Source: Truepera sp. (GTDB lineage Bacteria > Deinococcota > Deinococci > Deinococcales > Trueperaceae). Taken from it: a stretch of 49,774 bases of DNA. The notes beneath the pieces are model-generated. The model had not been told where the DNA came from and ran no database searches. It saw nothing but the letters and a program-made list of their open reading frames with translations. Shown here in pieces: positions 9,400-23,433 of the stretch (positions within the stretch are counted from its first letter, which is position 1; every line of letters begins with the position of its first letter). The stretch spans positions 1 to 49,774 of the forward strand of contig CBDCKW010000003.1 in assembly GCA_965218435.1 (NCBI GenBank). Reading direction: 5' to 3'. The position numbers and the translations under genes are program-made.

Positions 9400-10154
9400 T
9401 CGAGAAACACCCCGATTTCGTCGGTAACGCTGTCCTGAGCTTCATAAGAAACAAAAAACGCAGGCCGGTTCAAGCGGGCAGTAATACCTTTACCTGTTCG
9501 CTCATAGAGCACATCACAAATTGCCGTGAGCTTGCGCTCACGGTCTAAAGCGAGTGGGATACGCTCCTTAATAATTTGCGAACCGAGTATCAGCTCAGGC
9601 GCACCGTCTAAAGCCTGGGTTGGTACGATAGTGGTTAGTAATTCTTTCTTTATGGGTTGCTCAAGGGTCCAGTCCGTAACTGTAGCGACGTGCGCGACGT
9701 GCGCTAGACACTCAGACATACCGAGGTAAGGAGGGTAAATCCAGGTGTCGGTTATGAGCAGTGTGTTCAGTTTTTCAAGCCAATCTCTATCTTCATGCGT
9801 CACGTAGATGCGGTAGCACAACTTTGGGTTATCAATCTCGGGAAAAATCCACTCGACAGGAATTTGCGTGCCACCCGCACTACCGTCAAAGTCTGAAGGC
9901 GATTTAGTCATTAGGTAATTCACCGTCTGCATCACACGCCGCACAGATGTTCGCACTGAAACAGCGATTTTACACTGCTCGAGCCCTAAGTCCTCACTGT
10001 AGCTATCCCGTTCGTAGCCCATCAGTCCTGCAATAAGTCCCGCCAGCGTCGAGCGTGGCGGAAAAGGATAAGACAGCGATGACGAGTTCGTATAGAACTT
10101 GCGAAACATCGCATAAGCCCCCGTAAGGTCAAAAACAATTAGTGGATTTGGCAC
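9396..10154 (-). CDS. cas5: Cas5 (I-B)
   Basis: VFDLTGAYAMFRKFYTNSSSLSYPFPPRSTLAGLIAG and YPPYLGMSEC. Confidence 0.95.
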   Translation of the reverse strand: MPNPLIVFDLTGAYAMFRKFYTNSSSLSYPFPPRSTLAGLIAGLMGYERDSYSEDLGLEQCKIAVSVRTSVRRVMQTVNYLMTKSPSDFDGSAGGTQIPVEWIFPEIDNPKLCYRIYVTHEDRDWLEKLNTLLITDTWIYPPYLGMSECLAHVAHVATVTDWTLEQPIKKELLTTIVPTQALDGAPELILGSQIIKERIPLALDRERKLTAICDVLYERTGKGITARLNRPAFFVSYEAQDSVTDEIGVFLE

Positions 10155-10158
10155 GATA

Positions 10159-11118: not shown

Positions 11119-11120
11119 GT

Positions 11121-13142
11121 TTACTCTCCTTGGAAACTGGAATCGTCTGCGGCTCCGCGTGGTGCGGACGAAGCACCCGTAATAGCTTGAAGGGTTGAAT
11201 GTGAATAACCGCTGAGGATGTAATAGATATTTTCACTCGGTGTAAGCGTCCAAGAGCCTGCGCCTTCACTGAGCAAGACTTGTGCTTGAGCAAAAATCTT
11301 TTCGTTACGAGCATTAAGCAGAGGTTGGCGTTGACCGTCTCGGTACTGCCTTAGTTTGTCAAAAAGGTCTACCGCAAGCTGTTGCACCTTATTTAAGGTC
11401 ATCCCTTGGTAGTTCAATTTGTTCAATATCGTTTTTTTGCCTCCTCTGCCTTCCGAGCCGAGCCGGTACTGTGAATTGGCAATTTCACCGATGAGAACGC
11501 CTAAAAGATAAAGCGCAGTTTGGTTTTGAGAGTAATGGAGTTTTTCTAGATACTCTCTTTGCTTTTTACTGAGACTTAAATCCTCAAGGTAGTTCAGTGA
11601 CATATCTTTCTCCTTTAGCTGACCCTGCACACGCAAAAATGCTAAGAGTAGGTTGCTTTGGGCGACATAACGGATAAGGGGATAGTCTTCTGCATTTTCT
11701 GAGGGTTGCGAAAGGTGGTAAGCAGCGTAAGTACCGAAACGGTAAACCCTAACCAACTCCATAAAATCTTGGATAAGTTGCCGAGCGTCCACCAAGCCAC
11801 CCGTAATGAGTGTGGCGTAGAACTCGAGTACGTTTCTGCTGTGATAATCTGTGCCACTTTTGCGAACGGGAAGTAGATAGTACATACTTTTGAGAGTTAA
11901 GTTCCACTGTTTGCTCTCTCTAAAAAGGACATCGCCGATACGCGTCTTAATCTTGTCACCTGCACGTCTGAGTTCGGCAAGCCTATACTCAGGAACATCT
12001 TGAATCATACGAACAATCTTGAAGCTGGCCTGAGCGCGTTTATAGAAAAGCAAATCGAGAGAATGACTGTATTCGCCAAAATCGTCGTCGGCGACCTCAC
12101 CTAATTCTTCTTGAATCCCTAAGTTGATGTCGGTGCGTTTTCTGATGTCGCGCGTTTCCTCCACGATATTGATGATGGTCGCAGCTGTCATTTCAGCCTG
12201 GTAAAGGTTAGGAAGGATATAGCCGTTCGTTCCTGCTAAATAGAACCCTAATTCGCGCTCTACGAACCTCTCACCGACAAGCAGCGCAATGTAGGCATCT
12301 TTAGAAATCGTTAGGTTGGACTTGAAACCGCTCGAGTTGACCTCGGAAGCGAACCCAAGCTTGTCGGTAATGTAATACTTGAACTTCAAGCGCGTAAGGT
12401 TGGAAGTGACGGGTACAACTTTACCGCTAAGGTGACAACAACCGACCTCGGCCCCCTCAAAAACATCACCTACATAGACGTTCTCAAGGTAAGTGAGGTA
12501 TTCGTCGTTATCTACGAGGAGTTGCCCGTTAACCGCGAGGGTAAAGAGCATTCTGTCATTACCAAGTTGCTCTTTGAAGTGTTCGGTCAAGGCATCTGCG
12601 ACTAGTTTAGATAAACCCTTGACGCTTCCCTCTTCACGAGCATAGTGCTGTAAACTTTCGACGGTCGGGCCTTCGATACCTAGTTTAGGAAGGTTGAGCA
12701 GTCGCCGTGAGCGCCTATGGGTGATAGCACTATCTGTGCTACCAAGACTTTCTTGCTCGCCAACATCAAGGTAAAATTCACTAACGATGGATGTCAGCAC
12801 GTCGTGAAAGCGCGTATCAACCGTAACAGCTGCAAGAAGGTTTGATAAGGTTTGCGATACCAGATATTGCAGTCCATCTGTAGTCAGACGGTCTTGGTCA
12901 CTCGCAGAACTCGCCGCATTGCCAAGCCACAAAAACTGCTCAACGGTGTTAGTTCCTTCTTGGCTAAGCTCTCTTACCTCGATATCCAGTGTTGACCGGT
13001 CGGTATCAAGTTTCAAAACCGCGATACTTGGATTGCCATTTTTGGGTGTAGGCGGCGCTTTCGCCAACGACTCCAAGAAGGCTCGTTGACCGCTCGAGTT
13101 CTCCATAATGGCTTTGCCGAGTTGGTAAATACTTTCAATCAC
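11121..13142 (-). CDS. cas8b: Cas8b large subunit (TM1802/Csh1-like) with a Cas11-like C-terminus
   Basis: Position between cas6 and cas7; FKYYITDKLGF; C-terminal LYLLGVLIG...ILNKLNYQGM...YYILSGY. Confidence 0.88.
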   Translation of the reverse strand: MIESIYQLGKAIMENSSGQRAFLESLAKAPPTPKNGNPSIAVLKLDTDRSTLDIEVRELSQEGTNTVEQFLWLGNAASSASDQDRLTTDGLQYLVSQTLSNLLAAVTVDTRFHDVLTSIVSEFYLDVGEQESLGSTDSAITHRRSRRLLNLPKLGIEGPTVESLQHYAREEGSVKGLSKLVADALTEHFKEQLGNDRMLFTLAVNGQLLVDNDEYLTYLENVYVGDVFEGAEVGCCHLSGKVVPVTSNLTRLKFKYYITDKLGFASEVNSSGFKSNLTISKDAYIALLVGERFVERELGFYLAGTNGYILPNLYQAEMTAATIINIVEETRDIRKRTDINLGIQEELGEVADDDFGEYSHSLDLLFYKRAQASFKIVRMIQDVPEYRLAELRRAGDKIKTRIGDVLFRESKQWNLTLKSMYYLLPVRKSGTDYHSRNVLEFYATLITGGLVDARQLIQDFMELVRVYRFGTYAAYHLSQPSENAEDYPLIRYVAQSNLLLAFLRVQGQLKEKDMSLNYLEDLSLSKKQREYLEKLHYSQNQTALYLLGVLIGEIANSQYRLGSEGRGGKKTILNKLNYQGMTLNKVQQLAVDLFDKLRQYRDGQRQPLLNARNEKIFAQAQVLLSEGAGSWTLTPSENIYYILSGYSHSTLQAITGASSAPRGAADDSSFQGE

Positions 13143-13903
13143 CTCACCACCTCCACCATCCCAAACCCCTGGGCATTCTTGCCCCCCAGCCCCACGTCAT
13201 ACGCCAGCTCAAAATATGCCTGCGGCAGCTTCAGCTCGTAAGTCCCGAGCCAAGCCTGAACGCTGAACCCCTTATAGCTGATGATTTTCTTGTCCCGTTC
13301 TGAAACCCGGAGCGGTTTAATCGAGGCGTGTGCTAACGTTTTAGCTGCGTCGTCTTCCCACTCCAGAGCTTTGGCTTTACGCGCCAGGTTTTGTAGCAGC
13401 ATCCCGCTCCAGTCTTTTTCCGGCGGGCTGTAGTAGTGCGTGAGCTTACCCCCGCCCGGTTTTTGAAAGGTGCTGTAGATCGTGATCGGTGACAGCGCCT
13501 TGACCCGGACGGGTTGGTCAGCTTGAAAGCAAGGGGGCCGGAGGATTTCGACGCCGTGTACTCGCACCTCATGTTGTCCCAGCCGTAACGTCTGGCTTTT
13601 GAGCAAGTGTTCGGCCAAAGACGCCAAAATCTGAGTGTTGTGGCTGGCCAGCTGAAAGGTAACAGGACCGCTAAAAGAGATACGTTTGGTGTTTGCGTTC
13701 AGCTTAAAGCGTCCGGTAAGGCGTGAAAAGGTAAACATCTTAAAGGTGCGCTGGGCGTAACTGTAAGCGGTGCCGTGAAGCCAACCGGCGAGATTGGGCT
13801 CGAGCTGGCTGTAGATAAACCCTTGCAAAATTATGCCATAGTGAACAGGCAAAGAGAGTTCTGCGCGGGACTCGGGGGTCAAGGTGATCTGGATACGCAA
13901 CAA
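13139..13903 (-). CDS. cas6: Cas6 endoribonuclease
   Basis: FKMFTFSRL and the C-terminal Gly-rich loop GLGGKNAQGFG. Confidence 0.96.
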   Translation of the reverse strand: MLRIQITLTPESRAELSLPVHYGIILQGFIYSQLEPNLAGWLHGTAYSYAQRTFKMFTFSRLTGRFKLNANTKRISFSGPVTFQLASHNTQILASLAEHLLKSQTLRLGQHEVRVHGVEILRPPCFQADQPVRVKALSPITIYSTFQKPGGGKLTHYYSPPEKDWSGMLLQNLARKAKALEWEDDAAKTLAHASIKPLRVSERDKKIISYKGFSVQAWLGTYELKLPQAYFELAYDVGLGGKNAQGFGMVEVVR

Positions 13904-14319
13904 GGCTCCTTTGCCTTTGAAACCGAATTAAAAAAGTATACTTTGGCGCAAAACTAAAGCTTGAGGAAAATTACCCTCAGTAGCCAGCGTATACCTGATC
14001 GGGTAAACATACATCGCCTCTGTCGCCTCAGAACTAAAAGAGGGTGCGGTGCAGTAACCTTGGCTTAACCCGAGGGTCAACCAAATAGCAACCGCCGCTG
14101 GTTTCCTCATTGTCTATCGGTCTTGAGCTGCGTGGACACCCCCGCGCAAGCCTGAGCCTTCTCGGGCTCACAGAGCTACACTCCCTCCGGTCGCTCCGGG
14201 CTTGCACTCGTTGGTCGTTAAGAGCTGTGTCATCCAAAAAAAGAAAATACCCAGCGGTGGTCGCTGGGCACCCTGTTACAGCAGGGTCGGCATTTCGTTT
14301 CTCGGGATAGGAGAAAAAG

Positions 14320-14922
14320 ATGCTTAAGCTCAGTGTATCGCAGTTCGTAGGTCATCTTCCAGTAGAGCAACAAGGTTCAGTGCTCCTGAGTCAGGAGGCG
14401 TTTTTAGCTTTCTTACGGTCGGAGTTTCGGTGTAACGACCGGAGTAAGCGGGCTCTTGTTGAGGCCGCAACCGTCTACGCCGAACGTAAAGGGGTGATGG
14501 TGCACTGTCTGGCTGATGAACGCTTTGCAGCCAAGGCAGTGATCTACGCCTACATGAGGTTGGGCGAGGAACTGGTCAGGCGGGGCAAAGTGGACAAGCC
14601 CAAGTCGCACTTCAAGGTCTACCGGCGCAAGCAGGTTAAACCCGTTGAGAAGCCCGCCAACACTCGCTTCCGTACTGTCGAGACTTTCGTCAATGGCCGC
14701 CGAGAACGCATCACGCAATATCCGGCTGACATCACCTGGGCTGAGGCTAAGAGCTTTCAGTTCGATGCACTTTATGAGTTACCGGATGTCACTGTAGAGC
14801 CTGAGTACCAGGAAACGGGTGAAACCGCTCACTTCGACGCCTCGAGCCGTCCTACGGGGTGGGGCTGGCTCAAAGTCGAGGGTGAAGTGGTTAGCCGTAT
14901 CCGTTGTTGGGAAGGGTCGTGA
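14320..14922 (+). CDS. Hypothetical protein, 200 aa
   Basis: AGGAG ribosome-binding site upstream and an intrinsic terminator downstream; no motif recognised. Confidence 0.7.
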   Translation: MLKLSVSQFVGHLPVEQQGSVLLSQEAFLAFLRSEFRCNDRSKRALVEAATVYAERKGVMVHCLADERFAAKAVIYAYMRLGEELVRRGKVDKPKSHFKVYRRKQVKPVEKPANTRFRTVETFVNGRRERITQYPADITWAEAKSFQFDALYELPDVTVEPEYQETGETAHFDASSRPTGWGWLKVEGEVVSRIRCWEGS

Positions 14923-14942
14923 GGGGCTTCGGCCCCTTTTTT
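14922..14942 (+). terminator. Rho-independent terminator
   Basis: AGGGGC-TTCG-GCCCCT followed by a T run. Confidence 0.85.
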
Positions 14943-14953
14943 GCTGGGTTGCC

Positions 14954-15361
14954 CTAGCGGTTCTCGAGTAGAAAAGCTCGAACTGTCCGCACTCGCAAGG
15001 GTAGGTCGCCCCGTTCCATAAGGTGTCCAAAATGAGTAGTGTCGCCCGTCAGGAGGACGTCGGCCTTGTGTGCAAGCGCCGTTTCGTAGACGGGCCAGTC
15101 TTTTGCCGGTAGTTCGACGTTGGTCACTCCGTCATGTGCCTCGGGCACCTCGGCGACCTGCTCGAGCAGCGAGGCGAACCTCGCTAGCGCTTCGGGCCGC
15201 TTACGGGCGAGGTTGCGTTCGGCCTCCAGGCGGCAGTAACGGCTTGTAAGGAGCATTAGCCGCCCCGCCCCGGCAAGCTCCCACAGGAGAGCAAACGACG
15301 CCCCGCCGAGTGCTGCGCTGAAGAGGATGTTGGCGTCTAGAAATACCTTTATAGGCTCCAT
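14954..15361 (-). CDS. PIN-domain toxin
   Basis: VFLDANILFSA, LPAKDWPV and LLTGD. Confidence 0.9.
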   Translation of the reverse strand: MEPIKVFLDANILFSAALGGASFALLWELAGAGRLMLLTSRYCRLEAERNLARKRPEALARFASLLEQVAEVPEAHDGVTNVELPAKDWPVYETALAHKADVLLTGDTTHFGHLMERGDLPLRVRTVRAFLLENR

Positions 15362-15615
15362 GCCGTTCTAGCTTGCTTGAGTTCGTTCTCGGTCATCTCG
15401 GCATTCTCGGCGAACTCTTCGAGCCGGGCCTCGCTGTAGAGTTCGACTGGCGTAATTTCAACCGCTTCTAGGACAATCTCACCATCTTCGACACGGACAT
15501 TGAAGGCGTCGCCTGTGCGGAGCCCCAAAGCTTTACGCACTTCGGCAGGAAGCGTGAGCTGTCCTCGAGAGGAGAGCTGAACCAGAGGGTATTGCGGTGT
15601 GCGCGTCATCCCCAT
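15349..15615 (-). CDS. AbrB/MazE-family antitoxin
   Basis: SSRGQLTLPAEVRKALGLRTGD; overlaps the PIN start. Confidence 0.9.
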   Translation of the reverse strand: MGMTRTPQYPLVQLSSRGQLTLPAEVRKALGLRTGDAFNVRVEDGEIVLEAVEITPVELYSEARLEEFAENAEMTENELKQARTAWSL

Positions 15616-15661
15616 AATCTAGCAGAAATTCGGAAATACAGACGTCATAAAGCAGAGGAGG

Positions 15662-15697
15662 TAGCACGCGCTTATGCACGTGCAGGAGGAGAAGTAG
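15662..15697. repeat. Leading-region hairpin repeat, copy 1
   Basis: TAGCACGCGC-TTAT-GCACGTGC-AGGAGGAGAAGTAG. Confidence 0.85.
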
Positions 15698-15734
15698 CAG
15701 GAGTGATGCTCCTGACTTTTTCTGGAGGTGCGCT

Positions 15735-16595
15735 ATGCACCACGCCGTTTCAACCCTGTCCGCCCCGCCGCCAACCAAACCCAACCCTGCCATTGAGCGC
15801 CTGCATACCGGCGTCACCGAACTGCTCGACTCGCAGAGGTGGCAAGAGGCGCTGAGGTTTAAGACCCGGTTCCACGACTACTCGTTTAACAACGCCCTCT
15901 TGATCTACTTGCAGCGTCCCGACGCGAGCCTAGTTGCGGGCTATAAACGCTGGCAGGAGCTAGGGCGGCAGGTCAGAAAGGGAGAGACGAGCATCGCCAT
16001 CCTCGCGCCCATCGTGCGCCGTACCGAAGGTGAGGCGGAGGGTGAACGGGTGTGGGAGGTCGTGGGTTTCCGCTCGGCTCGCGTCTTCGACGTCTCGCAG
16101 ACCGACGGTAGCCCCCTACCCGAGCTGCCCCGACCGGTGCTACTGGAGGAGGACAGTGAGGCGGTTCGAGCGGCGCTGGCGAGAGCGGAAACCTTTGCCC
16201 TATCCAAAGGTTTCCCGGTGAGCTATCAAGACCTCCGTGGCGGCGCGCTCGGCTCGTTCTCAGTTACGAGGCGAGTGATAAAGGTGCGGACCGACTTGCC
16301 GCCCTTGCAGACCCTAAAAACGCTCGTACACGAACTCGCTCACGGCCTCATGCACGCCGACCCAAAAGCAGGAGAGAAGCGTCACCGGCTCGAGCTCGAG
16401 GCCGAGTCGTGCGCCTTTCTGGTGCTCTACGACCTCGGACTGGACACCTCGCGCTACACCTTCCCCTACCTGGCGAACTGGACCGAGCACCCGGACGAGC
16501 TGCTCGGGGCGGGTGAGAAGGCGGCCAGGGTCGCCGAGGAGGTGCTGCACACACTCAGGCTGCCTCTCGTAACCGACGCCTTCCCTAGTTCATAG
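15735..16595 (+). CDS. ArdC-like protein (ssDNA-binding N-domain plus HExxH metalloprotease-like domain)
   Basis: FHDYSFNNALLIYLQRP...VAGYKRWQELGRQVRKGE, VFDVSQTDG, TLVHELAH and ELEAES. Confidence 0.85.
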   Translation: MHHAVSTLSAPPPTKPNPAIERLHTGVTELLDSQRWQEALRFKTRFHDYSFNNALLIYLQRPDASLVAGYKRWQELGRQVRKGETSIAILAPIVRRTEGEAEGERVWEVVGFRSARVFDVSQTDGSPLPELPRPVLLEEDSEAVRAALARAETFALSKGFPVSYQDLRGGALGSFSVTRRVIKVRTDLPPLQTLKTLVHELAHGLMHADPKAGEKRHRLELEAESCAFLVLYDLGLDTSRYTFPYLANWTEHPDELLGAGEKAARVAEEVLHTLRLPLVTDAFPSS

Positions 16596-16626
16596 CACGC
16601 GCTCGCGCGTGCGGAGGAGAAGGTAG
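16593..16626. repeat. Leading-region hairpin repeat, copy 2
   Basis: TAGCACGCGC-TC-GCGCGTGC-GGAGGAGAAGGTAG; its TAG is the stop codon of the ArdC-like gene. Confidence 0.85.
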
Positions 16627-16708
16627 AGAGGAGGCTGTCGTTGCCACACTATGTTGGTTGACCCGCTCCGTTGAGAGCGGGGCTTTCACTTTCTTGGAGG
16701 AGATACTG

Positions 16709-18409
16709 ATGACCGTCCAGAGCTATCCACAAACCGCAGTTGCCCTGCCGCTCGCTACCTTGCCCCTTAGTGCCCTTACTCAAAGCGGTCTCAACCCCAG
16801 AACACGCTTCGATGAGGCCGCCATCGCCGAGCTCGCCCAGTCCATCCTCGAGCAAGGCGTGTTGCAAAACCTGGTGGTGCGCCCGCACCCTGAACACGAG
16901 GGCGTGTGGCAGGTGGTCGCCGGGGAGCGGCGCTACCACGCTCTTCAGCATCTTTTGGTCGAGGGGAAAATCGACGAGGTGTACCCGGTGCCCGTCGTGG
17001 TGCGAGAGGTGGACGATCACGAACTCCTGCTCCTAGCCACCGCCGAGAACGTCCAACGCCAGGACATGACCCCGTTGGAGGAGGCCGACGCCTTCGCCAA
17101 GCTCATGGCCCTGGGTGACACCGAAGAGGGCATCGCGCTCAGAACGGGGGTGGCCGTATCGACCGTGAAACTGCGGCTCAAGCTCACCTCGGGCTTGTGT
17201 GCAGACGCTCGTAGGGCGCTTTCAGCCGAGCAGCTGACCCTCTCCCAAGCCCAGGCGCTCCTGCTCGCCTCCAAAGGGTTGCAGAAGGAACTCTTGCCCC
17301 GCATCCTCGAGAGTGACTACGGCCCCAAAGACATCAAACGCCTCCTGACGCAAGACAAGGTGCCGGTGGGCCGTAACGTCTTTCCCTTAAAGGCGTATAC
17401 CGACGCCAAGGGCTCGATCACCCGTGACATCTTCCAGAGCGAGCACCCTGGCTGGTTCGACGACCGGGAACTCTTTATCCGCTTGCAGAACGAGGCCGTT
17501 GAGGAGAAGCTGGCAGCTTATCGGGAGCAAGGACTAGCGGTAGAGGTTACCCGCTACTTCATGCCGTATGGGTACACCGAGGGGGAAGGGGTCGTTATCG
17601 TGCTGAACGACTACGACGTCTCGGTGGAGTTCAAGGAAAGGCTTGTTAGACGCTCGGAGCCGAAACCCACATCGACTTCTACAACTCAAACCGGAGGCGA
17701 GACCAAGCCGAAAGAAAATCGGCGTAGGAACGAGTGGGAGGCCACGACGCTCACAAGGGCGCTCCACGTCGAGGCGGCCAAGGATTTTCGTCTCTGCTTG
17801 GTCCTTAACATCATGGCGCTGCTGAGCGTAAAGGGCTTTGACCTAAGACGCGAGGACGTCAGCGCTGAGCGGGGTCGTGCCAACCGCATCGTTTCAGAAG
17901 AGCTGCGACAAGCCTTTGAGAACGACCTCTCGAGACTGATTGATGGGTTTGAAGGTCCAGGGCTGAACCTTGGGCATTTAAGAGGGAACGAGGAACCCTA
18001 CCCACCGACCCTCGACGCCTACGGGGAGGGCATAGCCCACATCTTCGACACCCTTAGAGACATGAGCGACGAGGACCTACAGGCCCTCTTCTCCAAGCTG
18101 ACTGCCCTTGCCATCTCCCACATGAACAGCGACACGCTCTGGAACACCGAGGTCAAAAAGCTGGTGGCGGGGGCGACAAAGCTCAACGTCGCTGAACACT
18201 TCGACGCCTCAAGCCCTGAGTACCTCGCCTTGCACACCAAAGCCGAGCTGGGAGAACTGGCCCGGAACGCCAGGGTTGCGCTCGACGTCACCACGCTGAA
18301 AAAGCAGACTGCCGTCGAATACCTGAGTCAGCACGAGAAGGTCAGGGCGTTCGTACCCGAGAGGCTGAGGTTTGGGGCGGCTGCTGCCGTACCCGAACAA
18401 GGCAAATAG
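16709..18409 (+). CDS. Long ParB/Srx-domain protein of the plasmid leading-region type
   Basis: NPRTRFD, GVLQNLVVRP, VVAGERRY and AENVQRQDMTPLEEA. GGAGG precedes the ATG at 16709. No adjacent parA. Confidence 0.85.
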   Translation: MTVQSYPQTAVALPLATLPLSALTQSGLNPRTRFDEAAIAELAQSILEQGVLQNLVVRPHPEHEGVWQVVAGERRYHALQHLLVEGKIDEVYPVPVVVREVDDHELLLLATAENVQRQDMTPLEEADAFAKLMALGDTEEGIALRTGVAVSTVKLRLKLTSGLCADARRALSAEQLTLSQAQALLLASKGLQKELLPRILESDYGPKDIKRLLTQDKVPVGRNVFPLKAYTDAKGSITRDIFQSEHPGWFDDRELFIRLQNEAVEEKLAAYREQGLAVEVTRYFMPYGYTEGEGVVIVLNDYDVSVEFKERLVRRSEPKPTSTSTTQTGGETKPKENRRRNEWEATTLTRALHVEAAKDFRLCLVLNIMALLSVKGFDLRREDVSAERGRANRIVSEELRQAFENDLSRLIDGFEGPGLNLGHLRGNEEPYPPTLDAYGEGIAHIFDTLRDMSDEDLQALFSKLTALAISHMNSDTLWNTEVKKLVAGATKLNVAEHFDASSPEYLALHTKAELGELARNARVALDVTTLKKQTAVEYLSQHEKVRAFVPERLRFGAAAAVPEQGK

Positions 18410-18433
18410 CACGCGCTAGCGCACGTGCAGGGG
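18407..18433. repeat. Leading-region hairpin repeat, copy 3
   Basis: TAGCACGCGC-TAGC-GCACGTGC-AGGGG; its TAG is the stop codon of the ParB-like gene. Confidence 0.85.
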
Positions 18434-18536
18434 TGGGGGCAAAAAGGAGGTGGCTTCACCCTCGCCCATAGGAGAGGCCCGCGCTGACTTTACCGGAAAG
18501 CGCGGGCCTCGGTTCTCTCCCCACTCAAGGAGATGT

Positions 18537-18719
18537 ATGACCCAGTTTGCCCGTACCGCCATGAGGTGTCAAGGCGCGCCCTTTAGCAAGACGGAGCTTC
18601 GCCTCGACGTCGAGGTGCTTGCCGAGCGCTACGAAGCACTGGCGGCGCTCTCACCGCTCGAGGACGAACCGCCGGAGGAAGACGATACAGAAGAAGTACT
18701 AGACGACCTTCCCTTTTAA
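18537..18719 (+). CDS. Small acidic protein (60 aa) ending in an SSB-like tail, DDLPF
   Basis: AAGGAG precedes the ATG at 18537; C-terminus is EDEPPEEDDTEEVLDDLPF. Confidence 0.65.
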   Translation: MTQFARTAMRCQGAPFSKTELRLDVEVLAERYEALAALSPLEDEPPEEDDTEEVLDDLPF

Positions 18720-18771
18720 GTCTCTCCAGAGGCCGGGTTATCCCCGGTCTCACACCTCGAAAGGAGATGCG

Positions 18772-18954
18772 ATGGTCCAGCTCACCGCACCCCTGAGCAA
18801 ACGGCAGCTCGTGCTGCTCAGGACCCGTGCGTGTCTCGAGCGCCGCCTATGTGCTCCCACAACCTGCGACTACGGCCTCGCCGCCCGGATTAAAGAGATC
18901 GACCACGAACTCACCCGCATCGAGACGGCCAAACGCCGGGAGGACTCTATATGA
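18772..18954 (+). CDS. Hypothetical protein, 60 aa
   Basis: AAGGAG ribosome-binding site; ATGA overlap with the next ORF. Confidence 0.6.
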   Translation: MVQLTAPLSKRQLVLLRTRACLERRLCAPTTCDYGLAARIKEIDHELTRIETAKRREDSI

Positions 18955-19331
18955 CTACTACGCCCTTAACGCTCACCACCCTCACCCAAGAAAAGCACCT
19001 CGCGCCGCAGGTGTTCGACAGGGTGTGTGAACGCTTGCAGGTAGCGCAGGCGCACCACACCGAAGCGGTCAACGCCTTAGCCGAGGCGAAGTGTTCTTTA
19101 GAGTTCAAACGGGCCGAGCTGCTCGCTGGAGGGATTGACGGCAAGAACGCCGACGCTAGAGAGGCCGCCCTACGCCTCAGGCTGTTCGACGAGCACGCCG
19201 AACTTATCGGCCTCGAAGTGGTACTGAACGAAGCTAAGAAGGATTTCGAGCAGGCCCGGCTGACTTGGGACTGCTTGCGCTACAAGCTGCGGCTCCTCGA
19301 AGTGCAGCGGGCGCTAGGGGGGGCGGCTTAA
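18951..19331 (+). CDS. Hypothetical coiled-coil protein, 126 aa
   Basis: GGAGG ribosome-binding site; two long helical segments around GKNADAREA. Confidence 0.7.
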   Translation: MTTTPLTLTTLTQEKHLAPQVFDRVCERLQVAQAHHTEAVNALAEAKCSLEFKRAELLAGGIDGKNADAREAALRLRLFDEHAELIGLEVVLNEAKKDFEQARLTWDCLRYKLRLLEVQRALGGAA

Positions 19332-19367
19332 CCCCTCACCTTTCATTGTGGTATCGTAAGTAATACT

Positions 19368-19796
19368 ATGGAGCAGCGGCAGATCGTGCTCGACACCAAC
19401 GTTTTTGTTGCCGCGCTCCGTTCGCGCCGGGGTGCCTCGTTCAGGCTGCTCTCACTGGTGGGGACAAACTCGGCTTTTAAGACCAACCTTTCGGTGCCGC
19501 TCGTGCTCGAATATGAAGACGTCGCAAAACGCCCCGATATGGTCCCGGCTCTAAGTATGGAGGAGATCGACGCTGTGATCGACTACCTCTGCGCCGTTTC
19601 AAACAAGCAGGAGGTCTTTTTTCTCTGGCGTCCGCACCTCAAAGACCCCAAAGACGACATGGTCCTCGAGCTGGCCGTGGTCGCCGGTGCCGACGTTGTC
19701 ACCTTCAACGTCAGAGACTTTGCGGGAATTCAGACGTTTGGCCTGCGTGCGCTCACGCCGCAGGCATTTCTAGACGAGATTGGAGTGTTGATATGA
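19368..19796 (+). CDS. PIN-domain toxin
   Basis: IVLDTNVFVAALRS, DPKDDMVLELAV and VTFNVRDF. Confidence 0.9.
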   Translation: MEQRQIVLDTNVFVAALRSRRGASFRLLSLVGTNSAFKTNLSVPLVLEYEDVAKRPDMVPALSMEEIDAVIDYLCAVSNKQEVFFLWRPHLKDPKDDMVLELAVVAGADVVTFNVRDFAGIQTFGLRALTPQAFLDEIGVLI

Positions 19797-20029
19797 GCAA
19801 CCTCAGTTTGCGACTACCCGAATCGCTGCACAAGCAGGTCAAGGCGCTCGCCAAACAAGAAGGCGTCTCGATCAATCAGTTTGTCACCACGGCACTGGCT
19901 GAAAAGCTGTCGGCCTTGATGACCCAGGAGTACCTGGAGGCGCGGGCTGAACGCGGTAACCAAGCAGCGTTCGAGCGGGTGCTGGGTAAGGTGCCGGATG
20001 CGGAACCCGAACCGCACGACCGGCTCTAG
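19793..20029 (+). CDS. RHH/HicB-like antitoxin
   Basis: LSLRLPESLHKQVKALAKQEGVSINQF; ATGA overlap with the PIN gene. Confidence 0.85.
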   Translation: MSNLSLRLPESLHKQVKALAKQEGVSINQFVTTALAEKLSALMTQEYLEARAERGNQAAFERVLGKVPDAEPEPHDRL

Positions 20030-20307
20030 CTGCTCTCCTCATAACTCTGGGAATCCGTAAGAGGAAGGCTAAAAAGCGCCCGGTCCAAGTCGCGCTCGAG
20101 GTAGCCGTCAAGCACCTCCAAGAGCTTCTCTTCAGGCCACGCGCCCTGTTCTACTTGCTCCAAAACAGCTGCGCCCACGAGGATTTTTCTGCGAGTGTCA
20201 ACCTTGCGCTCTCGCTCTTTTGTCTGCGCCTTGACACGCTGAATCTTGGCGGTCAGCTCGGCGCGCTGCGCTTCTAACTTCCTCAGCTTCTCCTGGGTGC
20301 TCGCCAC
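20026..20307 (-). CDS. mobC: MobC/MobS-like relaxosome accessory protein
   Basis: ERKVDTRRKILVGA...LDGYLERDLDRALF; divergent from mobA across oriT, as in IncQ plasmids. Confidence 0.85.
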   Translation of the reverse strand: MASTQEKLRKLEAQRAELTAKIQRVKAQTKERERKVDTRRKILVGAAVLEQVEQGAWPEEKLLEVLDGYLERDLDRALFSLPLTDSQSYEESS

Positions 20308-20375
20308 GGTGCACCTCCTTGGCCGCCACTATAGACGAGATTGCCGCCCCGGGCAAAGGGGTAGCTGAAGCTGCC

Positions 20376-20416
20376 TTATGGCGCACATACCGGTTTCTCC
20401 GTCTCTAGAAACGGAG
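20376..20416 (-). other. MOBQ-type oriT; nic predicted between 20382 and 20381 on the minus strand
   Basis: Minus strand reads CCGTTTCT-AGAGACGG-AGAAACCGGTATGTGCG^CCAT, compared with RSF1010 ...AGAAACCGGTAAATGCG^CCCT as recalled. It lies between mobC and mobA. Confidence 0.85.
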
Positions 20417-20463
20417 CGTAGCCAGATCGTCTATGCTGGGGACTAGCAGCGAAGGTTCTGACA

Positions 20464-21259
20464 ATGGCGATCTATCATCTAAGAGCTCAGACAGGAAGCC
20501 GCGCGCGGGCAGTCCGCGAAGGCTAAGGCGGACTACATCCAGCGTGAGGGCAAGTATAAAGACCAGGAGGACAAGCTGGTTTATAAAGAGTCCGGCAACA
20601 TGCCCGGCTGGGCCGACGATGAGCCCTCGGAATACTGGCAGGCCGCGGACACCTACGAGCGGGCGAACGGCCGCCTCTACAAAGAAGTCGAGGTCGCCCT
20701 TCCTAAGGAGCTGGGAGAGGACGAGCGGGTCACACTGGCGCGTGAGTTCGCGGAGAAGCTCACCGAAAAGGAGAACCTGCCCTACACCCTGGCAGTGCAC
20801 GAAGGCAGGGGTGAGAACCCACACGCGCACGTGATGATTTCGGAGCGGATGAACGATGGCGTCGAGAGACCCCCGGAGACCTGGTTCCGGCGGGCGAACC
20901 GGGAGGAACCGGAGGGGGGCGGGGCGCTCAAGACGGAGAGCATGAAGCCGAAGGCGTGGCTTACCGAGACGCGGGAACTGTGGGGGCGCGAGGTCAATGG
21001 AGCCCTCGAGCGCGGGGGTCATGAGGCGCGCGTTGACCACCGCTCGCTCGAGGCGCAGGGGCTCGAGCGCGTCCCGACCCGGCACATCGGCGTGCACGCA
21101 GCGGCGATGGAAGCGCGCGGTATCCGCACCGAGCGGGGCGATATGGCGCTGGAGATTGACCGGCAAAACCGGGAGATCGAGCAGGAAAAGGCATCATTTT
21201 TAGAGGCGCAACAACAAATCGAGAGGGGCGCGCAGCGGGAGCGTGGGCTCGAGTACTGA
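20464..21259 (+). pseudogene. mobA: MobA/MobL (MOBQ) relaxase with a frameshift near 20500-20506
   Basis: MAIYHLRAQTGSRA, frameshift, then GQSAKAKADYIQREGKY...ERANGRL...LAVHEG...NPHAHVMISER...RVDHRSLEAQG. The span is 796 nt, not a multiple of 3. Confidence 0.9.
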
Positions 21260-21831
21260 GCCGAAGGTGAAGTTGCCAGTTCCGTGAAGCCTAGGTGGAA
21301 GCAGCAAGCACCTCCGATAGGCTTCACGAATGGGGGGTTCGAGTAGGTAGTAGGTTCGGCGACAAGCCGTACAAATTCAGCAATTCTTATGAGGTGGCAT
21401 GGCCGTAATTCCAGCGAGTGCGAAGGAGAAGTTGTAGCTGGGCTCCAGCGGCACCGTGGCAGAGTCGAGGCGGTACTCGCTTAGGTCGAAATAATCACCT
21501 AGTACCCTTCGCTTATGCGGTACTCGGGCCGGTTCACTGCATCATGGTTCATCCACCAAGAATTGTCCACGGTTAGCAGGGTAGCACTACCAAAAACTAC
21601 ATCACGTGCAGCAAGGAAGGTTGTTTGGCTGAATACCCCATCCGCTTGCGGCGGGGTTTTTATTTGCTACCGCCCAAACTTCCTTGGTTGCGGTCAACTA
21701 CACCCGCGCCTTAAGTTCAGCCTAGAGAACCGATCTCAGCAACAAGGTTCAAATGAATGCCCTCCTGACTATTATGGTCAAAATGCTATGCGACCCGCAA
21801 TAACCGCCGGTTCTCAACTTTGTCTTTTACA

Positions 21832-23433
21832 TCACGCGGTTGCTTGCGGATTAAGCCACTGACGCCAATTACTCATAAGCGCGTCTTCCTGTAAGAGGTC
21901 GCATTCGAACGCGATGTAGGCGTCCGGTCTCAACATAAAGACAGTTCCTGGTCGTGTTGCCAGCTTACGCTCGAGCTCTCCCTTATAGTCGGTCAGAACG
22001 TTGTTCCCCAGATCATGTTGTCGAGAAAGCCCCGCATCGAGAACGACATACGGTGCCACTTTGTCTTGCTCCGCCAGTTTCAACAAGCGCAGTAACGCCG
22101 CACGTTGTTCGCTGACCTGAGCCGCCAGGGTAAAAATAATCAGGGTAAGCGTGGACGAGCGTAAAAGTTCGTATAAGCGGACAGGCCGAAGCGTGGCGTC
22201 CCTAAGCTCGATGTCTGGAACCCGAGTGCCTGCTGACGAGCCTGCCGTTGACGGCGCTTCGTAACGAATGCCGATCCCTGAAAGCCCATGGCTTAGTCTG
22301 CGCTGCACAAACTGTCGTGGCACAAACAGGCGAAACAAGCTGTCTCGTACCGAGCGCGCTGGCTGGTGAGGAACCAGCAGACCACGTAAGATGAGGTCGC
22401 TCATCCATAGTGCTCTTTTCCCTACCGGGTGACGTTCAGCTTGGAAGGTTTCCAGGAGTGCTTCAGGAGACCACCCTTGGATGACCTGTGCGAGTTTCCA
22501 ACCAAGGTTAAAAGCATCTTGTATCCCGGTGTTCATCCCTTGACCCCCGGCAGGGCTATGCGTGTGGGCCGCGTCACCCGCCAGGAAAGCACGCCCTACA
22601 CGGTAGCTCGGAACCTGCTGAAGACTGGACCCCCAACGCGACAGGCTGCGCGGTTCGCGGAGCGTGACCGGTTTGCCTAAAATGGCTCGAGTCGATTCCT
22701 GCAATTCGCTAAGCTCAAGCTCACGCTGGTCGGTTTCTTGCTGATAGGCGCGGTCGATGGTGATAATGCGCACAGCGCCGTCTTGAAAGGGCAAAATCAA
22801 GGCCAAGCCCCGTGCGTTTGAGTACTGTTCGGTTCCGCCGGTAACGACGTGACCATCCATCATAACATCGCCCAAGAAAGCCTTCCAGACATAACTCGAG
22901 CCTTCGAACGGCAATCCCAGAGTTTCACGGACTAGACTGTTGGCACCATCGGCACCCACCATAAAGCGGGCACTAATTCGATGTTCTTGATCCCCCGACA
23001 CGGTACGAGCCTCAACACGGTCACCACAGTCTTCAAAGCCTGTGAGGGTCACACCACGCTCAACCTGCACACCGAGTTGATTAAGGTGAGCTTCTAAGAT
23101 AGTTTCGGTTTCTACTTGAGGGAGGATCAAGACAAAAGGGAACGCCGAGTCGAGCTGGTGCATACCCGCTCGGAGAGGTCGCCGACTTCCGGCGCTTAAG
23201 GTAAAGCCCGGCGAGGTGTACCCACGCTTGACAAATTTATTAGTCAGCCCGAGTAGATCGAAAAGCTCGAGAGTACGCGCATGAATGCCCAGGGCTTTGC
23301 TCCGGGTCGAGCGTGCCAATCGTTTCTCGATGATGCGACAAGAGATCTGACGCCGCGCAAGTTCGGTGGCAACGATAAGGCCCGTAGGTCCTGCTCCAAC
23401 GATAAGGACATCCGTATCCGGTTTTTCCATCAT
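21832..23433 (-). CDS. FAD-dependent aromatic monooxygenase (PheA/TfdB-like)
   Basis: GAGPTG, GADGANS and LAGDAAHTHSPAGGQGMNTGIQDA. Confidence 0.9.
   Translation of the reverse strand: MMEKPDTDVLIVGAGPTGLIVATELARRQISCRIIEKRLARSTRSKALGIHARTLELFDLLGLTNKFVKRGYTSPGFTLSAGSRRPLRAGMHQLDSAFPFVLILPQVETETILEAHLNQLGVQVERGVTLTGFEDCGDRVEARTVSGDQEHRISARFMVGADGANSLVRETLGLPFEGSSYVWKAFLGDVMMDGHVVTGGTEQYSNARGLALILPFQDGAVRIITIDRAYQQETDQRELELSELQESTRAILGKPVTLREPRSLSRWGSSLQQVPSYRVGRAFLAGDAAHTHSPAGGQGMNTGIQDAFNLGWKLAQVIQGWSPEALLETFQAERHPVGKRALWMSDLILRGLLVPHQPARSVRDSLFRLFVPRQFVQRRLSHGLSGIGIRYEAPSTAGSSAGTRVPDIELRDATLRPVRLYELLRSSTLTLIIFTLAAQVSEQRAALLRLLKLAEQDKVAPYVVLDAGLSRQHDLGNNVLTDYKGELERKLATRPGTVFMLRPDAYIAFECDLLQEDALMSNWRQWLNPQATA

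Follow-up and report, generated by a model that had tools for sequence, protein, structure and literature searches.

The window, that is, the whole stretch of DNA that was analysed, is one entire plasmid contig of 49.8 kb from an environmental bacterium, most likely a member of Deinococcota, and is probably circular. Between positions 14320 and 20381, eight of 11 genes were located on the plus strand, coding for an ArdC-like protein, a ParB-like protein, four conserved orphan proteins and one PIN/RHH toxin-antitoxin (TA) pair; the minus-strand genes were a second TA pair (PIN, AbrB/MazE) and mobC. A mobilization module of the RSF1010/IncQ1 type was found at 20026–21259, with IS110 and unrelated cargo just past the relaxase gene. 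Upstream of the cas operon a CRISPR array with 57 repeat copies starts at about position 1126. The coupling protein was the only one of the VirD4/TraG type matched in the whole genome. No SSB gene was present on the plasmid, the sole SSB of the genome being chromosomal. All features are detailed in Table 1.

Table 1. Location and main characteristics of the plasmid features described in this work.
Feature	Position	Strand	Characteristics
Type I-B cas operon (cas6, cas8b, cas7, cas5, cas3, cas4, cas1; context)	5358–13903	-	Pfam matches
orf200, conserved two-part protein	14320–14922	+	49 homolog clusters, all >60% identical
Second TA pair: PIN toxin (14954–15361) and AbrB/MazE-type antitoxin (15349–15615)	14954–15615	-	PIN_3 3.1e-9; MazE_antitoxin 4.2e-11
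ArdC-like protein, 286 aa: ArdC N-terminal domain and C-terminal HExxH (HELAH) metallopeptidase-like part	15735–16595	+	PF08401, PF06114
ParB-like protein, 566 aa (ATG 16709) or 583 aa (TTG 16658): ParB_N and HTH, long C-terminal part	16709–18409	+	PF02195 1.5e-19; PF17762 5.9e-9
60-aa protein: conserved N-terminal part, acidic linker, C-terminus DDLPF	18537–18719	+	24 homologs; recorded gene call of exactly 60 aa
orf60, small conserved protein	18772–18954	+	Always immediately 5' of orf126
orf126, helical-hairpin protein	18951–19331	+	97 homolog clusters, no Pfam match; AF2 pLDDT 87, two long helices
PIN-domain toxin, 142 aa	19368–19796	+	PIN_3 1.5e-15; TIGR00305
RHH/HicB-CopG-type antitoxin, 78 aa	19793–20029	+	PF05534 1.7e-10 and other RHH families
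MobC-like relaxosome accessory protein, 93 aa; predicted first gene to enter	20026–20307	-	61% identity to pRKZ3 'mobilization protein' by oriT
oriT core	20375–20415	-	Matches RSF1010 nic substrate (as given in PMC4814116), IncQ1 plasmid pRKZ3 and sister plasmid G005 C1
MobA/MobL (MOBQ) relaxase gene, short, without primase domain	20464–21259	+	PF03389 3.7e-33
VirD4/TraG-type coupling protein (context)	27624–29486	+	PF02534 1.4e-41

Origin of transfer and predicted direction of transfer

On the minus strand, the sequence of the oriT core is GAGAAACCGGTATGTGCG/CC, and that of positions 20415–20375 is ...CCGTTTCTAGAGACGGAGAAACCGGTATGTGCG/CCATAAG. The RSF1010 MobA substrate is given as CAGTTTCTCGAAGAGAAACCGGTAAGTGCG/CCCTCCC in PMC4814116, which also reports the nick position and the part of the oligonucleotide that stays on the relaxase. 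The 18 bases 5' of the nick showed one mismatch with that substrate, and the distance from the inverted repeat (here imperfect, GTTTCT at 20393–20398 and AGAAAC at 20407–20412 in plus-strand coordinates) to the nick was 8 nt in both. The strict core AAACCGGT-N1-3-GTGCGC occurred once in the 4.8-Mb genome, and oriT was flanked by divergent mobC and mobA homologs, arranged as in the IncQ1 plasmid pRKZ3. On the basis of this RSF1010-like core and the equal spacing, the nick is predicted on the minus strand between 20382 and 20381, a placement by homology and not a mapped nick. Given the IncQ1 arrangement and the near-identical nick core, the relaxase would remain attached to the 5' end at 20381. 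Transfer would thus involve the minus strand, which is the template of the plus-strand genes, and transcription of these genes points toward oriT.

According to PMC11541004, the nicked strand is the transferred strand (T-strand), the relaxase gene is the last to enter, and leading-region anti-defence, SSB and TA genes sit on the T-strand. The predicted order of entry here would be mobC, RHH/PIN, orf126, orf60, the 60-aa DDLPF protein, ParB-like, ArdC-like, AbrB/PIN, orf200 and cas. The first-pass annotation had proposed the same nic site, transfer toward lower coordinates, the transferred strand as template of the plus-strand genes and the oppositely oriented cas operon as next to enter; the first was borne out by the oriT homology to RSF1010, the second by the nick position and the IncQ1 homology, the strand logic held, and the cas operon is indeed on the minus strand. 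The stretch 14320–20381 is a genuine leading region, of a kind already known, and its sequence places it on the side of an RSF1010/IncQ1-type MOBQ mobilization module that would enter first.

The plus-strand genes had been listed correctly, but the second TA pair and mobC on the minus strand had been overlooked. Terminator-like hairpins delimited 2 to 5 transcription units on the plus strand and 2 on the minus strand (4 to 7 in total). With so few plus-strand units, and with most genes in the rest of the plasmid also on the plus strand, the strand bias by itself is not above chance expectation; of the match claimed with the known leading-region bias, the templating of most genes by the T-strand stands. 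No Frpo-like single-stranded DNA (ssDNA) structure or ssDNA-promoter-like fold was found in two promoter regions on the T-strand (z -1.3, 19 of 200 shuffles as good; z -2.3, 1 of 100).

Relaxase, MobC and mobility of the plasmid

The relaxase domain was 61% identical over 223 aa to that of pRKZ3. The gene was frameshifted in a CG run near 20499–20512: the ATG frame meets a stop after 20 codons, and no start lies ahead of the catalytic Tyr (AKADY) in the frame that encodes it. GAC-TAC is preceded by 67 nt, versus 69 in the intact ortholog (283 aa) of sister plasmid G005 C1, from the same genus, and both proteins share a C-terminal GLEY. In that plasmid a gene spans the contig ends, which is a sign of a circle. 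The frameshift was also present in the contigs of runs X1 and X2 (depth 51 and 242), which had no indel at this place. MobC matched the pRKZ3 protein over 82 aa (E 5e-35), had no Pfam match and was preceded by a sigma-70-like promoter (20356–20328, minus strand). The genome contained no second MobA/MobL relaxase gene, and searches of it for a VirB4-type secretion system were negative (PF03135, no match; PF12846, none above cut-off); its single PF01935 match (25.1 bits, above cut-off) and a weak PF12846 match fell in the same 991-aa chromosomal frame.

With a broken relaxase and no recognisable type IV secretion system (T4SS), transfer of the plasmid today in this strain is doubtful, and the frameshift together with the missing VirB4-type mating apparatus indicates that the module is probably inactive in this strain. 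The earlier designation as a conjugative leading region was right in its geometry but not in its type of element, which is mobilizable. These data, the IS110 and unrelated cargo beyond the relaxase, and a chromosomal copy of the cassette in G005, which is decayed and riddled with IS, are in favour of a decayed relic, a plasmid that no longer transfers and whose leading-region genes are drifting cargo. This seems rather unlikely: the cassette genes are all intact, with ribosome-binding sites and 53–91% protein identity to their sister-plasmid counterparts, as are mobC and the core of oriT, and helper systems could be supplied from plasmids of other cells. In addition, the reading frame is broken within a short CG repeat at which relative X5 has 2 extra bases, i.e., one repeat unit of difference, so that the break may be recent or reversible.

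Genes of the leading side and their homologs

The ArdC-like protein was, among the genes studied here, the only member of a known anti-defence family, with PF08401 at 2.4e-11 (44.3 bits, cut-off 22.6), PF06114 at 22.8 bits (cut-off 22) and a PHROG 'anti-restriction protein' match over residues 38–252 (1.5e-19). Its match to solved ArdC was weak: a 3-sequence profile gave ArdC structures 6I89/6SNA as best PDB matches, at E 0.006 over 59 residues, and a single-sequence search against solved ArdC gave no match. With its ssDNA-binding domain and metalloprotease, it would shield the incoming DNA from restriction. The ParB-like gene has a Shine-Dalgarno sequence ahead of 16709, and its translation holds an AGERRYHA motif; its PRTRC_parB-like match (6.4e-42) was under the family cut-off. 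No ParA gene is adjacent, those of the plasmid being located at 32.8 and 36.5 kb, and no homolog of the ParB-like protein was matched in G005 C1.

One orphan gene had been given as an 89-aa frame, orf89, following a mechanical ORF start at 18450; the real gene codes for 60 aa from 18537 and is present as a single copy in the genome. DDLPF was the exact C-terminus in 20 of 24 homologs, the linker was acidic and contained proline, and only 4 of 79,007 frames of the genome ended in [DE]LPF. The host SSB ends in EEDLPF, the acidic tip of E. coli SSB is DDDIPF according to PMC5872125, and the SSB C-tip of Thermus and Deinococcus is covered by PMC13489159. From these motifs, the end of the 60-aa protein is a look-alike of the SSB C-terminal tip, which is a new lead. 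The protein itself cannot be an SSB, since neither an OB fold nor an SSB family match is present; it would instead represent a tail that is either free or carried by an adaptor. Such a tail would rival the host SSB for SSB partners (RecO, RecJ, etc.) on the incoming single strand or, alternatively, would provide a DNA-binding protein of the plasmid with an SSB-like tail, and could stand functionally in place of ssb and psiB of F-like leading regions. In a literature search, no naturally occurring protein with such a free SSB-like tip came up from a plasmid or phage.

The start of orf126 overlaps the stop of orf60, so that translational coupling is likely; their Shine-Dalgarno sequences are GGGAGG and AAGGAG, respectively. 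The orf126 model gave no specific fold match, and orf60 matched no family. The orf200 gene is its own transcription unit, with a terminator-like hairpin at 14921–14938, and its product was 91% identical to that of G005 C1; a Pfam family was found in none of 18 scanned among the 33 representatives of its profile search, and its model (AF2 pLDDT 56) had no fold match. Homolog clusters of orf200 and orf126 were found on contigs of identical size 9 times, and those of the 60-aa family with either in 9 of 23. All four orphans had Shine-Dalgarno sequences and conserved protein homologs; Pfam, NCBIfam, PHROG and PADLOC searches gave no match and no fold match was informative. Their proposed role as anti-restriction, anti-CRISPR or anti-SOS factors therefore found no support in family searches or fold comparison. 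Within an establishment cassette, orf60/orf126 and orf200 would be conserved companions.

The PIN toxin gene ends with a 4-nt overlap with the start of the RHH antitoxin gene. The order orf126-PIN-RHH recurs in metagenome locus L077, and an antitoxin 70% identical to this one adjoins mobC in G005 C1, where the slot of the second TA pair holds different TA genes, also on the minus strand. TA pairs would occupy variable slots, as cargo for addiction or defence.

An ordinary backbone for stability and partition was also considered, with genes lying by oriT by accident of operon structure and expressed only once double-stranded, and with orphans in maintenance or regulation. Typical maintenance functions include TA pairs and ParB, and the few independent plus-strand units in a mostly plus-strand plasmid, the lack of an ssDNA-promoter-like structure and the orphans without an anti-defence family match are all compatible with it. 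Nevertheless, it is judged unlikely: the sister plasmid retains the ArdC-orphan cassette but not the ParB-like gene, which here has no neighbouring ParA, ArdC is an anti-restriction family, and the SSB-tip copy hints at ssDNA transactions.

In G005 C1 the order ArdC, 60-aa protein, orf60 and orf126, plus orf200, is conserved in the same orientation, adjoining the same oriT. Homologs of orf60 (44–61% identical) were located 5' of orf126 in G005 C1, G005 C8 and contig C5 of the host genome, as well as in 8 metagenome loci. Of eight contexts of close orf60/orf126 homologs, two (the window and G005 C1) had a MOBQ relaxase or oriT within 10 kb, in the flanks examined; none was found in G005 C8, host-genome C5 or L071–L074. 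Close homologs of the orphans, which had been expected near oriT, were thus found there in these two contexts only. Four long metagenome loci with such homologs had no relaxase match. Among 17 loci scanned for distant orf126 homologs, no relaxase family was found and seven had a tyrosine integrase within about 2.5 kb; cargo included RM, MmeI, type ISP, TIR or SLATT, and Prim-Pol/DUF3987. The host genome carries 8 copies of the orf126 family, on plasmids C3, C5 and C8 and in 4 chromosomal islands by integrase and TA genes; 41 of 363 genomes of the order had a match. DUF6876 follows orf126 in L071, L074, L075 and host-genome C5.

This distribution suggests that orf60-orf126, often with DUF6876, could be a general mobile-element module of this phylum that is not special to leading regions, with oriT as one of several contexts. 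It would work at any site of arrival or induction of an element, for instance by regulation or by mediating ssDNA/recombination in the manner of UvsY. Look-alikes of orf126 in a structural atlas were Deinococcota and phage clusters without a name; of the named ones UvsY came closest, at 0.87, and in a separate fold comparison UvsY scored Z 9.7. However, the likeness is unspecific (FliJ, Z 10.5; 235 chains with Z of 8 or more; Foldseek E-values of 0.9 or worse), and the closest orthologs with complete context adjoin oriT in two plasmids. We consider this alternative somewhat improbable, and a general arrival function would fit the leading-region reading too.

Taken as a whole, the leading side of a MOBQ module, with plus-strand genes forming an establishment cassette and the module probably inactive here, is regarded as the best explanation, by a modest balance of probability. 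The term anti-defence island is partly supported, by the ArdC-family gene about 4 kb from the nick, but not by the orphans, which have no anti-defence family match.

Comparison with known systems

As in RSF1010/R1162 (IncQ1, MOBQ1), mobC and mobA are divergent around oriT (relaxase domain and MobC each 61% identical to pRKZ3), the nick core differs in one of 18 bases and has the same 8-nt spacing to the inverted repeat, and mobA would enter last. Unlike in RSF1010, the relaxase is short (about 265–283 aa), frameshifted and without a fused primase domain, and the plasmid that carries the module is 50 kb in size, encodes a VirD4-like coupling protein of its own and has a host outside the Proteobacteria. 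With the leading-region anti-defence islands described by Samuel et al. (2024, PMC11541004), the locus shares the position of its genes among the first after oriT, the predicted templating of most of them by the T-strand, and a mixture of TA genes, small uncharacterized genes and a gene of an anti-restriction family. It differs from the islands described there in that no anti-CRISPR, methyltransferase, SSB or PsiB homologs and no Frpo/ssi-like element were found, the element is mobilizable, and the orphan families lie near oriT in two of eight contexts.

The 60-aa protein resembles the C-tip of bacterial SSB in its acidic, proline-containing linker and DDLPF end (EEDLPF in the host SSB), but has no OB fold. 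In the F plasmid, ssb and psiB, both mentioned in PMC11541004, are leading genes; by analogy, the role proposed here is to take care of the single strand on entry and to dampen the host response to it, although there is no sequence or fold relation and the tail decoy or adaptor would be a different, purely proposed mechanism. The ardC gene of IncW plasmid R388 is located in the leading region. Although very distant in sequence from R388 ArdC (6I89, 6SNA; profile E 0.006 over 59 residues, no single-sequence match), the ArdC-like protein shares with it an ArdC N-terminal domain above the Pfam cut-off, a similar length (286 versus 297 aa), a C-terminal HExxH and the leading-region location.

Gene content and orientation of the leading region

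The host genome, of 4.8 Mb, was assembled in nine contigs, and the window comprised all of contig C3 (49,774 bp). The ends of this contig share a 17-bp overlap and it is thus probably a circular plasmid, as judged from the assembly. Structural and sequence look-alikes, together with weak database matches, place the host in Deinococcota. Sequencing runs containing near-identical DNA are labelled as lichen, rock, air and soil metagenomes, mostly with small word shares. The features of the plasmid are detailed in the table.

Features of the plasmid and coordinates in the window
Feature	Position	Strand	Remarks
CRISPR array	~1126 to ~4900		57 repeats; repeat GTTTCAATTCCTCATAGGAAAGCTAAGAGC
Type I-B cas operon	5358-13903	-	
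orf200	14320-14922	+	orphan
PIN/AbrB pair	14954-15615	-	toxin-antitoxin (TA) pair
ArdC-like gene	15735-16595	+	
ParB-like gene	16709-18409	+	
60-aa protein gene	18537-18719	+	orphan
orf60	18772-18954	+	orphan
orf126	18951-19331	+	orphan
PIN/RHH pair	19368-20029	+	
mobC	20026-20307	-	mobC, oriT and mobA: 20026-21259
mobA	20464-21259	+	
Flavin monooxygenase and IS110	beyond mobA		
Conserved gene	26563-27627		no assigned function
VirD4-like coupling protein gene	27624-29486		sole coupling protein in the host genome
Conserved gene	30332-31414		no assigned function
Two ParA genes and metabolic cargo	beyond the coupling protein		
STAND/NACHT NTPase, then tricorn-like protease	37691-46630		1835 aa and 1123 aa
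Integrase, Fic protein	rest of the plasmid		

The G+C content of the type I-B CRISPR-Cas region (0.45-0.53) was below that of the mobilization module and leading region (0.56-0.64). The large STAND/NACHT NTPase showed a weak match to Avs1b (PADLOC, 5.5e-7) and, together with the tricorn-like protease that follows it, is possibly a defence pair. Of the conserved genes accompanying the coupling protein, one (354 aa) was 33% identical to a gene of the sister plasmid of a same-genus genome (G005), and the other (360 aa), which could be a replication initiator, had 36-40% identity with genes in the vicinity of orf60/orf126 in the metagenome loci L071 and L074.

The region 14320-20381 contained 11 genes, none of them more than 6.1 kb from the predicted nick. 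The first-pass annotation had described its plus-strand genes as templated by the transferred strand; this holds for eight of the 11 genes, but the minus-strand PIN/AbrB pair and mobC had been overlooked and the bias lies within chance. The remaining plasmid genes are mostly on the plus strand as well, and strand bias alone is no evidence. Terminator-like hairpins were found 3' of orf200, parB and orf126, and therefore the plus-strand genes form two to five transcription units, versus two on the minus strand. The plus-strand genes are templated by the minus strand and transcribed toward oriT; PMC11541004 reports this orientation for leading-region genes, with an enrichment across the first 30 ORFs.

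The N-terminal domain of the ArdC-like protein matched PF08401 (ArdcN, the ssDNA-binding domain of ArdC) with 44.3 bits (cut-off 22.6), and the C-terminal part carried a HELAH motif, of the HExxH form expected for the ArdC metalloprotease domain, and matched PF06114 with 22.8 bits (cut-off 22). Residues 38-252 matched a PHROG annotated as anti-restriction protein at 1.5e-19. The best profile matches in the PDB were to ArdC (6I89/6SNA, E 0.006), without alignment to the solved ArdC C-terminal domain, and a single-sequence search against the PDB gave no match. The ParB-like protein, probably starting at ATG 16709, contained a CTP-binding ParB_N domain (PF02195, 1.5e-19), an HTH domain (PF17762, 5.9e-9) and the motif GERRYHA in translation; no ParA gene lies beside it on the plasmid map. 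A palindrome 3' of the parB stop was considered as a parS array and rejected, as it occurs a single time.

The oriT, the mobilization module and transfer capacity

Between the divergent genes mobC and mobA, an inverted repeat is followed, after 8 nt, by the nick core ..GTGCG/C, the minus strand 20415-20375 reading CCGTTTCTAGAGACGGAGAAACCGGTATGTGCG/CCATAAG. The MobA substrate of the IncQ1 plasmid RSF1010 is given in PMC4814116 as CAGTTTCTCGAAGAGAAACCGGTAAGTGCG/CCCTCCC, where the slash marks the nick and the relaxase keeps the part after the slash bound. Both sequences share the 8-nt spacing of the inverted repeat, and of the 18 bases preceding the nick only one is mismatched. Sequence and gene order are also shared by the IncQ1 plasmid pRKZ3; its protein in the MobC position is 61% identical to MobC of the window over 82 aa, and the relaxase domain of its MobA is 61% identical over 223 aa. 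The nick position, minus-strand location and transfer toward lower coordinates proposed in the first-pass annotation are therefore what homology to RSF1010 and pRKZ3 predicts. On this basis, the 5' end at 20381 would carry the relaxase, and entry of the minus strand into the recipient would proceed toward lower coordinates.

The strict oriT core occurred once in the host genome and, among 88 DNA stretches (784 kb), elsewhere only in pRKZ3 and the sister plasmid. A relaxed pattern gave many chance matches; a recurrent one, in the fetched loci L069, L073 and L074, was rejected as an oriT because it lies in coding sequence (in L074 inside a DUF6876 gene) and lacks an inverted repeat.

The mobA gene matched PF03389 at 3.7e-33, and its translation includes AKADY, with the catalytic tyrosine (Y25), and NPHAHVM, with the HxH metal-binding motif; catalytic residues of MobA_R1162 are given in PMC6856555. 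The relaxase is a short form from which the primase domain is absent. The module can be placed as a member-like relative of IncQ1/MOBQ1 that lacks one defining feature, an open relaxase frame. Its DNA (20026-21259) was 66-68% identical over ~700 bp to plasmids of Proteobacteria, with 61% protein identity; these identities, for an IncQ1-type module on a plasmid whose host probably belongs to Deinococcota, suggest an exchange between phyla.

The frame opened by the mobA ATG at 20464 closes after 20 codons; AKADY and the remainder of the domain are encoded in another frame, which contains no start 5' of the tyrosine codon. The distance from the ATG to the GAC-TAC codons is 67 nt in the window versus 69 nt in the ortholog on the sister plasmid, which is intact and encodes 283 aa, and the frameshift falls in CGCGCGCG, a short CG dinucleotide run at ~20499-20512. 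Contigs from two runs of one sample (X1 and X2, depth 51 and 242) matched the window, with no indel at the CG run; in a third run (X3), 20049-20630 lay outside the coverage. A 93%-identical relative (X5) has two extra bases (CG) at this position and its mobA thus reads through, as does that of G005. The frameshift may reflect a recent loss, or else a switch prone to slippage. No second MobA/MobL gene was detected in the host genome.

Among plasmid ORFs of at least 100 aa, no T4SS families other than the coupling protein were found. In the whole host genome, the search for a VirB4-type ATPase gave no match to PF03135 and none over the cut-off to PF12846, and a single match to PF01935 over the cut-off (25.1 bits), in a 991-aa chromosomal frame of unassigned identity. 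The leading region had been called conjugative in the first-pass annotation; with no mating-pair-formation genes found among these ORFs, the plasmid is built for mobilization rather than conjugation. It is probably immobile at present.

The orphan genes

All four orphan genes are preceded by Shine-Dalgarno sequences, and they constitute a concrete small candidate set of 60-200 aa. Conserved protein homologs were grouped in 97 clusters for orf126, 49 for orf200 and 24 for the 60-aa protein, none of them with a recorded Pfam domain or informative name. The orphans had no match in Pfam, NCBIfam or PADLOC at the thresholds applied. In PHROGs, orf200, the 60-aa protein (orf89) and orf60 were likewise unmatched, and orf126 had one weak match (phrog_31827, a family of unknown function, E 0.0033). 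The orphans had been proposed to be undescribed anti-restriction, anti-CRISPR or anti-SOS factors; neither the HMM nor the structure checks yielded a known anti-defence family or an informative fold match.

Among the orphans, the 60-aa protein is the informative one, and its likeness to the SSB tail is the only feature here that may be of a new kind. Members of its family share a conserved N-terminal part (MTQFA...LDVEVLAERYEAL) followed by an acidic linker, and 20 of the 24 terminate in exactly DDLPF; three are one residue off and one reads past. The sole SSB of the host, a 284-aa frame with two OB folds, ends in PPEEDLPF, and the plasmid has no SSB gene. Among 79,007 stop-to-stop frames of at least 35 aa in the genome, only four have [DE]LPF ends: the 60-aa protein, the SSB and two others. 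The 60-aa protein matched neither PF00436 nor any other family in Pfam and NCBIfam, and an OB fold is excluded because 60 aa leave no room for it. The tip of Escherichia coli SSB (DDDIPF) recruits partner proteins, as stated in PMC5872125, and PMC13489159 describes recruitment of RecO by the SSB tip in Thermus and Deinococcus. Our literature search found no report of an SSB-tip mimic among natural plasmid or phage proteins.

We tentatively propose, as a possibility that we consider rather doubtful, that this protein, which amounts to hardly more than the partner-recruiting tip of the host SSB, founds a family of mobile-element SSB-tail decoys or adaptors, with a decoy or docking role in a Deinococcota-specific cassette with orf60/orf126 and orf200. 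As a decoy, judging from its C-terminus, it would titrate RecO, RecJ and other SSB-tip-binding proteins off the incoming strand, a function that could be anti-recombination or anti-damage-signal, replacing PsiB/SSB in a phylum without RecBCD. As an adaptor, it could attach to ArdC, or to some other DNA-binding protein of the plasmid, and provide an SSB-like tail in trans. The likeness to the SSB tail offers a specific hypothesis on how a mobile element may steer the SSB partner network on incoming ssDNA; if true, it would represent a new mechanism class in plasmid establishment, and if false, the locus amounts to the backbone of an ordinary mobilizable plasmid in partial decay.

Matches to the orf126 profile occurred in 41 of the 363 genomes of the order, and at eight places in the host genome. 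For its distant homologs, 20 loci were fetched and 17 of them scanned, covering 113 of the 247 ORFs listed: a tyrosine integrase lay within ~2.5 kb in seven of the 17, in the company of Prim-Pol/DUF3987 genes and of cargo for restriction and other types of defence, and no relaxase family was found in any of the 17. The surroundings of the chromosomal copies of the host were alike. These integrase-linked, relaxase-free contexts indicate, as far as gene neighbourhood can tell, that orf126 is a family of mobile elements in general.

Six distant copies of the orf126 family were located in the host genome (C9:998587, C9:2066452, C9:2632922, C9:2876053, C8:7312 and C8:17783), all of ~115 aa and with REAA ends. 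The four chromosomal ones lie in islands starting with a tyrosine integrase, with a RelE/XRE-type pair in three. A conserved 68-aa gene precedes five of the six copies and a small acidic ORF the other one; the variable cargo comprises a type I restriction subunit, nucleotidyltransferase and terminase-like genes. Contig C8 of the host (21,040 bp) consists of a ~10.47-kb unit repeated head to tail, with 8,258 bp at 100% identity. It is probably a small plasmid that the assembly rendered as a dimer; its genes include a large primase/helicase-like one and one of the orf126 family. Ala-Ala C-termini (GGAA, EGAA, REAA, GEAA) were observed in nearly all of the 25 aligned orf126 members (two end in VA or AT) and, again in nearly all cases, in the six distant paralogs, an 84-aa paralog on the host megaplasmid C5 and a neighbouring acidic ORF. 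Speculatively, this end could be a C-terminal degradation (protease) tag.

The orf126 product was modelled as a two-helix hairpin (pLDDT 87), for which Foldseek against PDB and BFVD retrieved nothing at E 0.001 or better. Structure comparison gave Z ~9-10.5 for many unrelated hairpins, among them FliJ (10.5) and UvsY (9.7); Foldseek E-values were 0.9-1.5. The Atlas look-alikes were unnamed Deinococcota and phage clusters (0.94-0.95), and in a cluster at 0.87, 16% of the members carry UvsY (PF11056). The predicted likeness to a UvsY-type recombination mediator is a lead only. With tblastn, orf126 had one weak match in the PLSDB plasmids and none in phages, and the related-locus search of genome contigs retrieved only one locus, with 26% identity.

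The model of orf200 was poor (pLDDT 56); the wide fold search reached a best Z of 5.2, not a match, and nothing above 0.75 was found in the Atlas. No PLSDB plasmid matched it by tblastn. Its profile had 33 matches in 1.84 billion representatives, and none of the 18 scanned contained a Pfam family.

Conservation of the cassette and comparison with known leading regions

The sister plasmid is a 51,221-bp contig of G005, with an AbiEii gene spanning the contig ends. Its gene order is orf200 (91% identity), minus-strand TA genes, ArdC (70%), the 60-aa protein (59%), orf60 (53%), orf126 (72%), AbiEi/AbiEii, RHH (70%), mobC, oriT, intact mobA and the coupling protein; the ParB gene is absent. The cassette and its orientation beside oriT are therefore conserved there, with two slots occupied by variable TA or abortive-infection cargo. 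Among the homolog clusters, the length of the longest contig was shared between orf200 and orf126 in nine cases, and nine of 23 in the 60-aa family shared it with either of these, which suggests that the three orphan families co-occur.

A further copy of the ArdC-orphan cassette was found in the G005 chromosome (locus L011, C8:3396000-3415900 of that genome), where a transposase insertion splits the 60-aa gene, further insertion sequences surround the copy and housekeeping genes flank it. No relaxase was found beside this copy, which looks like a relic of plasmid integration.

On the host megaplasmid C5, orf60, orf126 and a DUF6876 gene occur without a relaxase. Four long metagenome loci, with orf126 74% identical, kept the orf60-orf126 order, with DUF6876 next in two (L071 and L074). 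No relaxase family was found in the 88 of their 134 listed ORFs that were scanned, tblastn detected no MobA, MobC or ArdC, and two of the four carry a coupling protein. A DUF6876 gene is placed directly 3' of orf126 in L071, L074, L075 and C5 of the host (530.5 kb), the position held in the window by PIN/RHH, and the module appears to be orf60, orf126 and a variable third gene.

A MOBQ relaxase or oriT was present within the flanks in two of the eight contexts of close orf60/orf126 homologs, a small sample, and in none of the distant loci scanned; the enrichment of homologs near oriT expected from the first-pass annotation was not seen. The close contexts other than the window and the sister plasmid speak against a strict link of the cassette to oriT.

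In the proposed mechanism, mobC would be the first gene of the minus strand to enter, and reading the plus-strand genes from this strand would require a promoter formed on ssDNA. Generic ssDNA folding of two upstream regions of the transferred strand (z -1.3 and z -2.3) gave no clear Frpo/ssi-like promoter, and Rfam had no match over 13800-21900 at E up to 0.1. Early expression may therefore just come after synthesis of the complementary strand, which would start in the 14320-20381 region. The ArdC-like protein would then act against restriction, by analogy with the ArdC family. The DDLPF protein would either rival SSB for its partners on the incoming strand or supply a DNA-binding protein of the plasmid with a tail. 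The minus-strand TA pair would be late-expressed addiction or defence cargo, a view consistent with the different minus-strand TA genes in the corresponding slot of the sister plasmid.

Overall, we regard it as moderately probable that the region is the leading side of an IncQ1-type module with an establishment cassette, the geometric part of this reading being much more certain than the functional part. Counter-defence by leading regions is established in plasmids of model bacteria; to our knowledge, almost nothing is known of it in Deinococcota, where conjugation itself is poorly documented. The designation as an anti-defence island stands for the position after oriT. The orientation, with eight of 11 genes on the plus strand but few transcription units, speaks neither for nor against it; no ssDNA promoter was found, and in the small sample of other contexts the families were not enriched near oriT. 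The region fits the known leading-region concept, and an anti-defence island only in some respects. In comparison with the known systems, the locus represents an IncQ1-type module, at 61% protein identity, on a plasmid of the Deinococcota lineage with a clearly oriented first-entering region.
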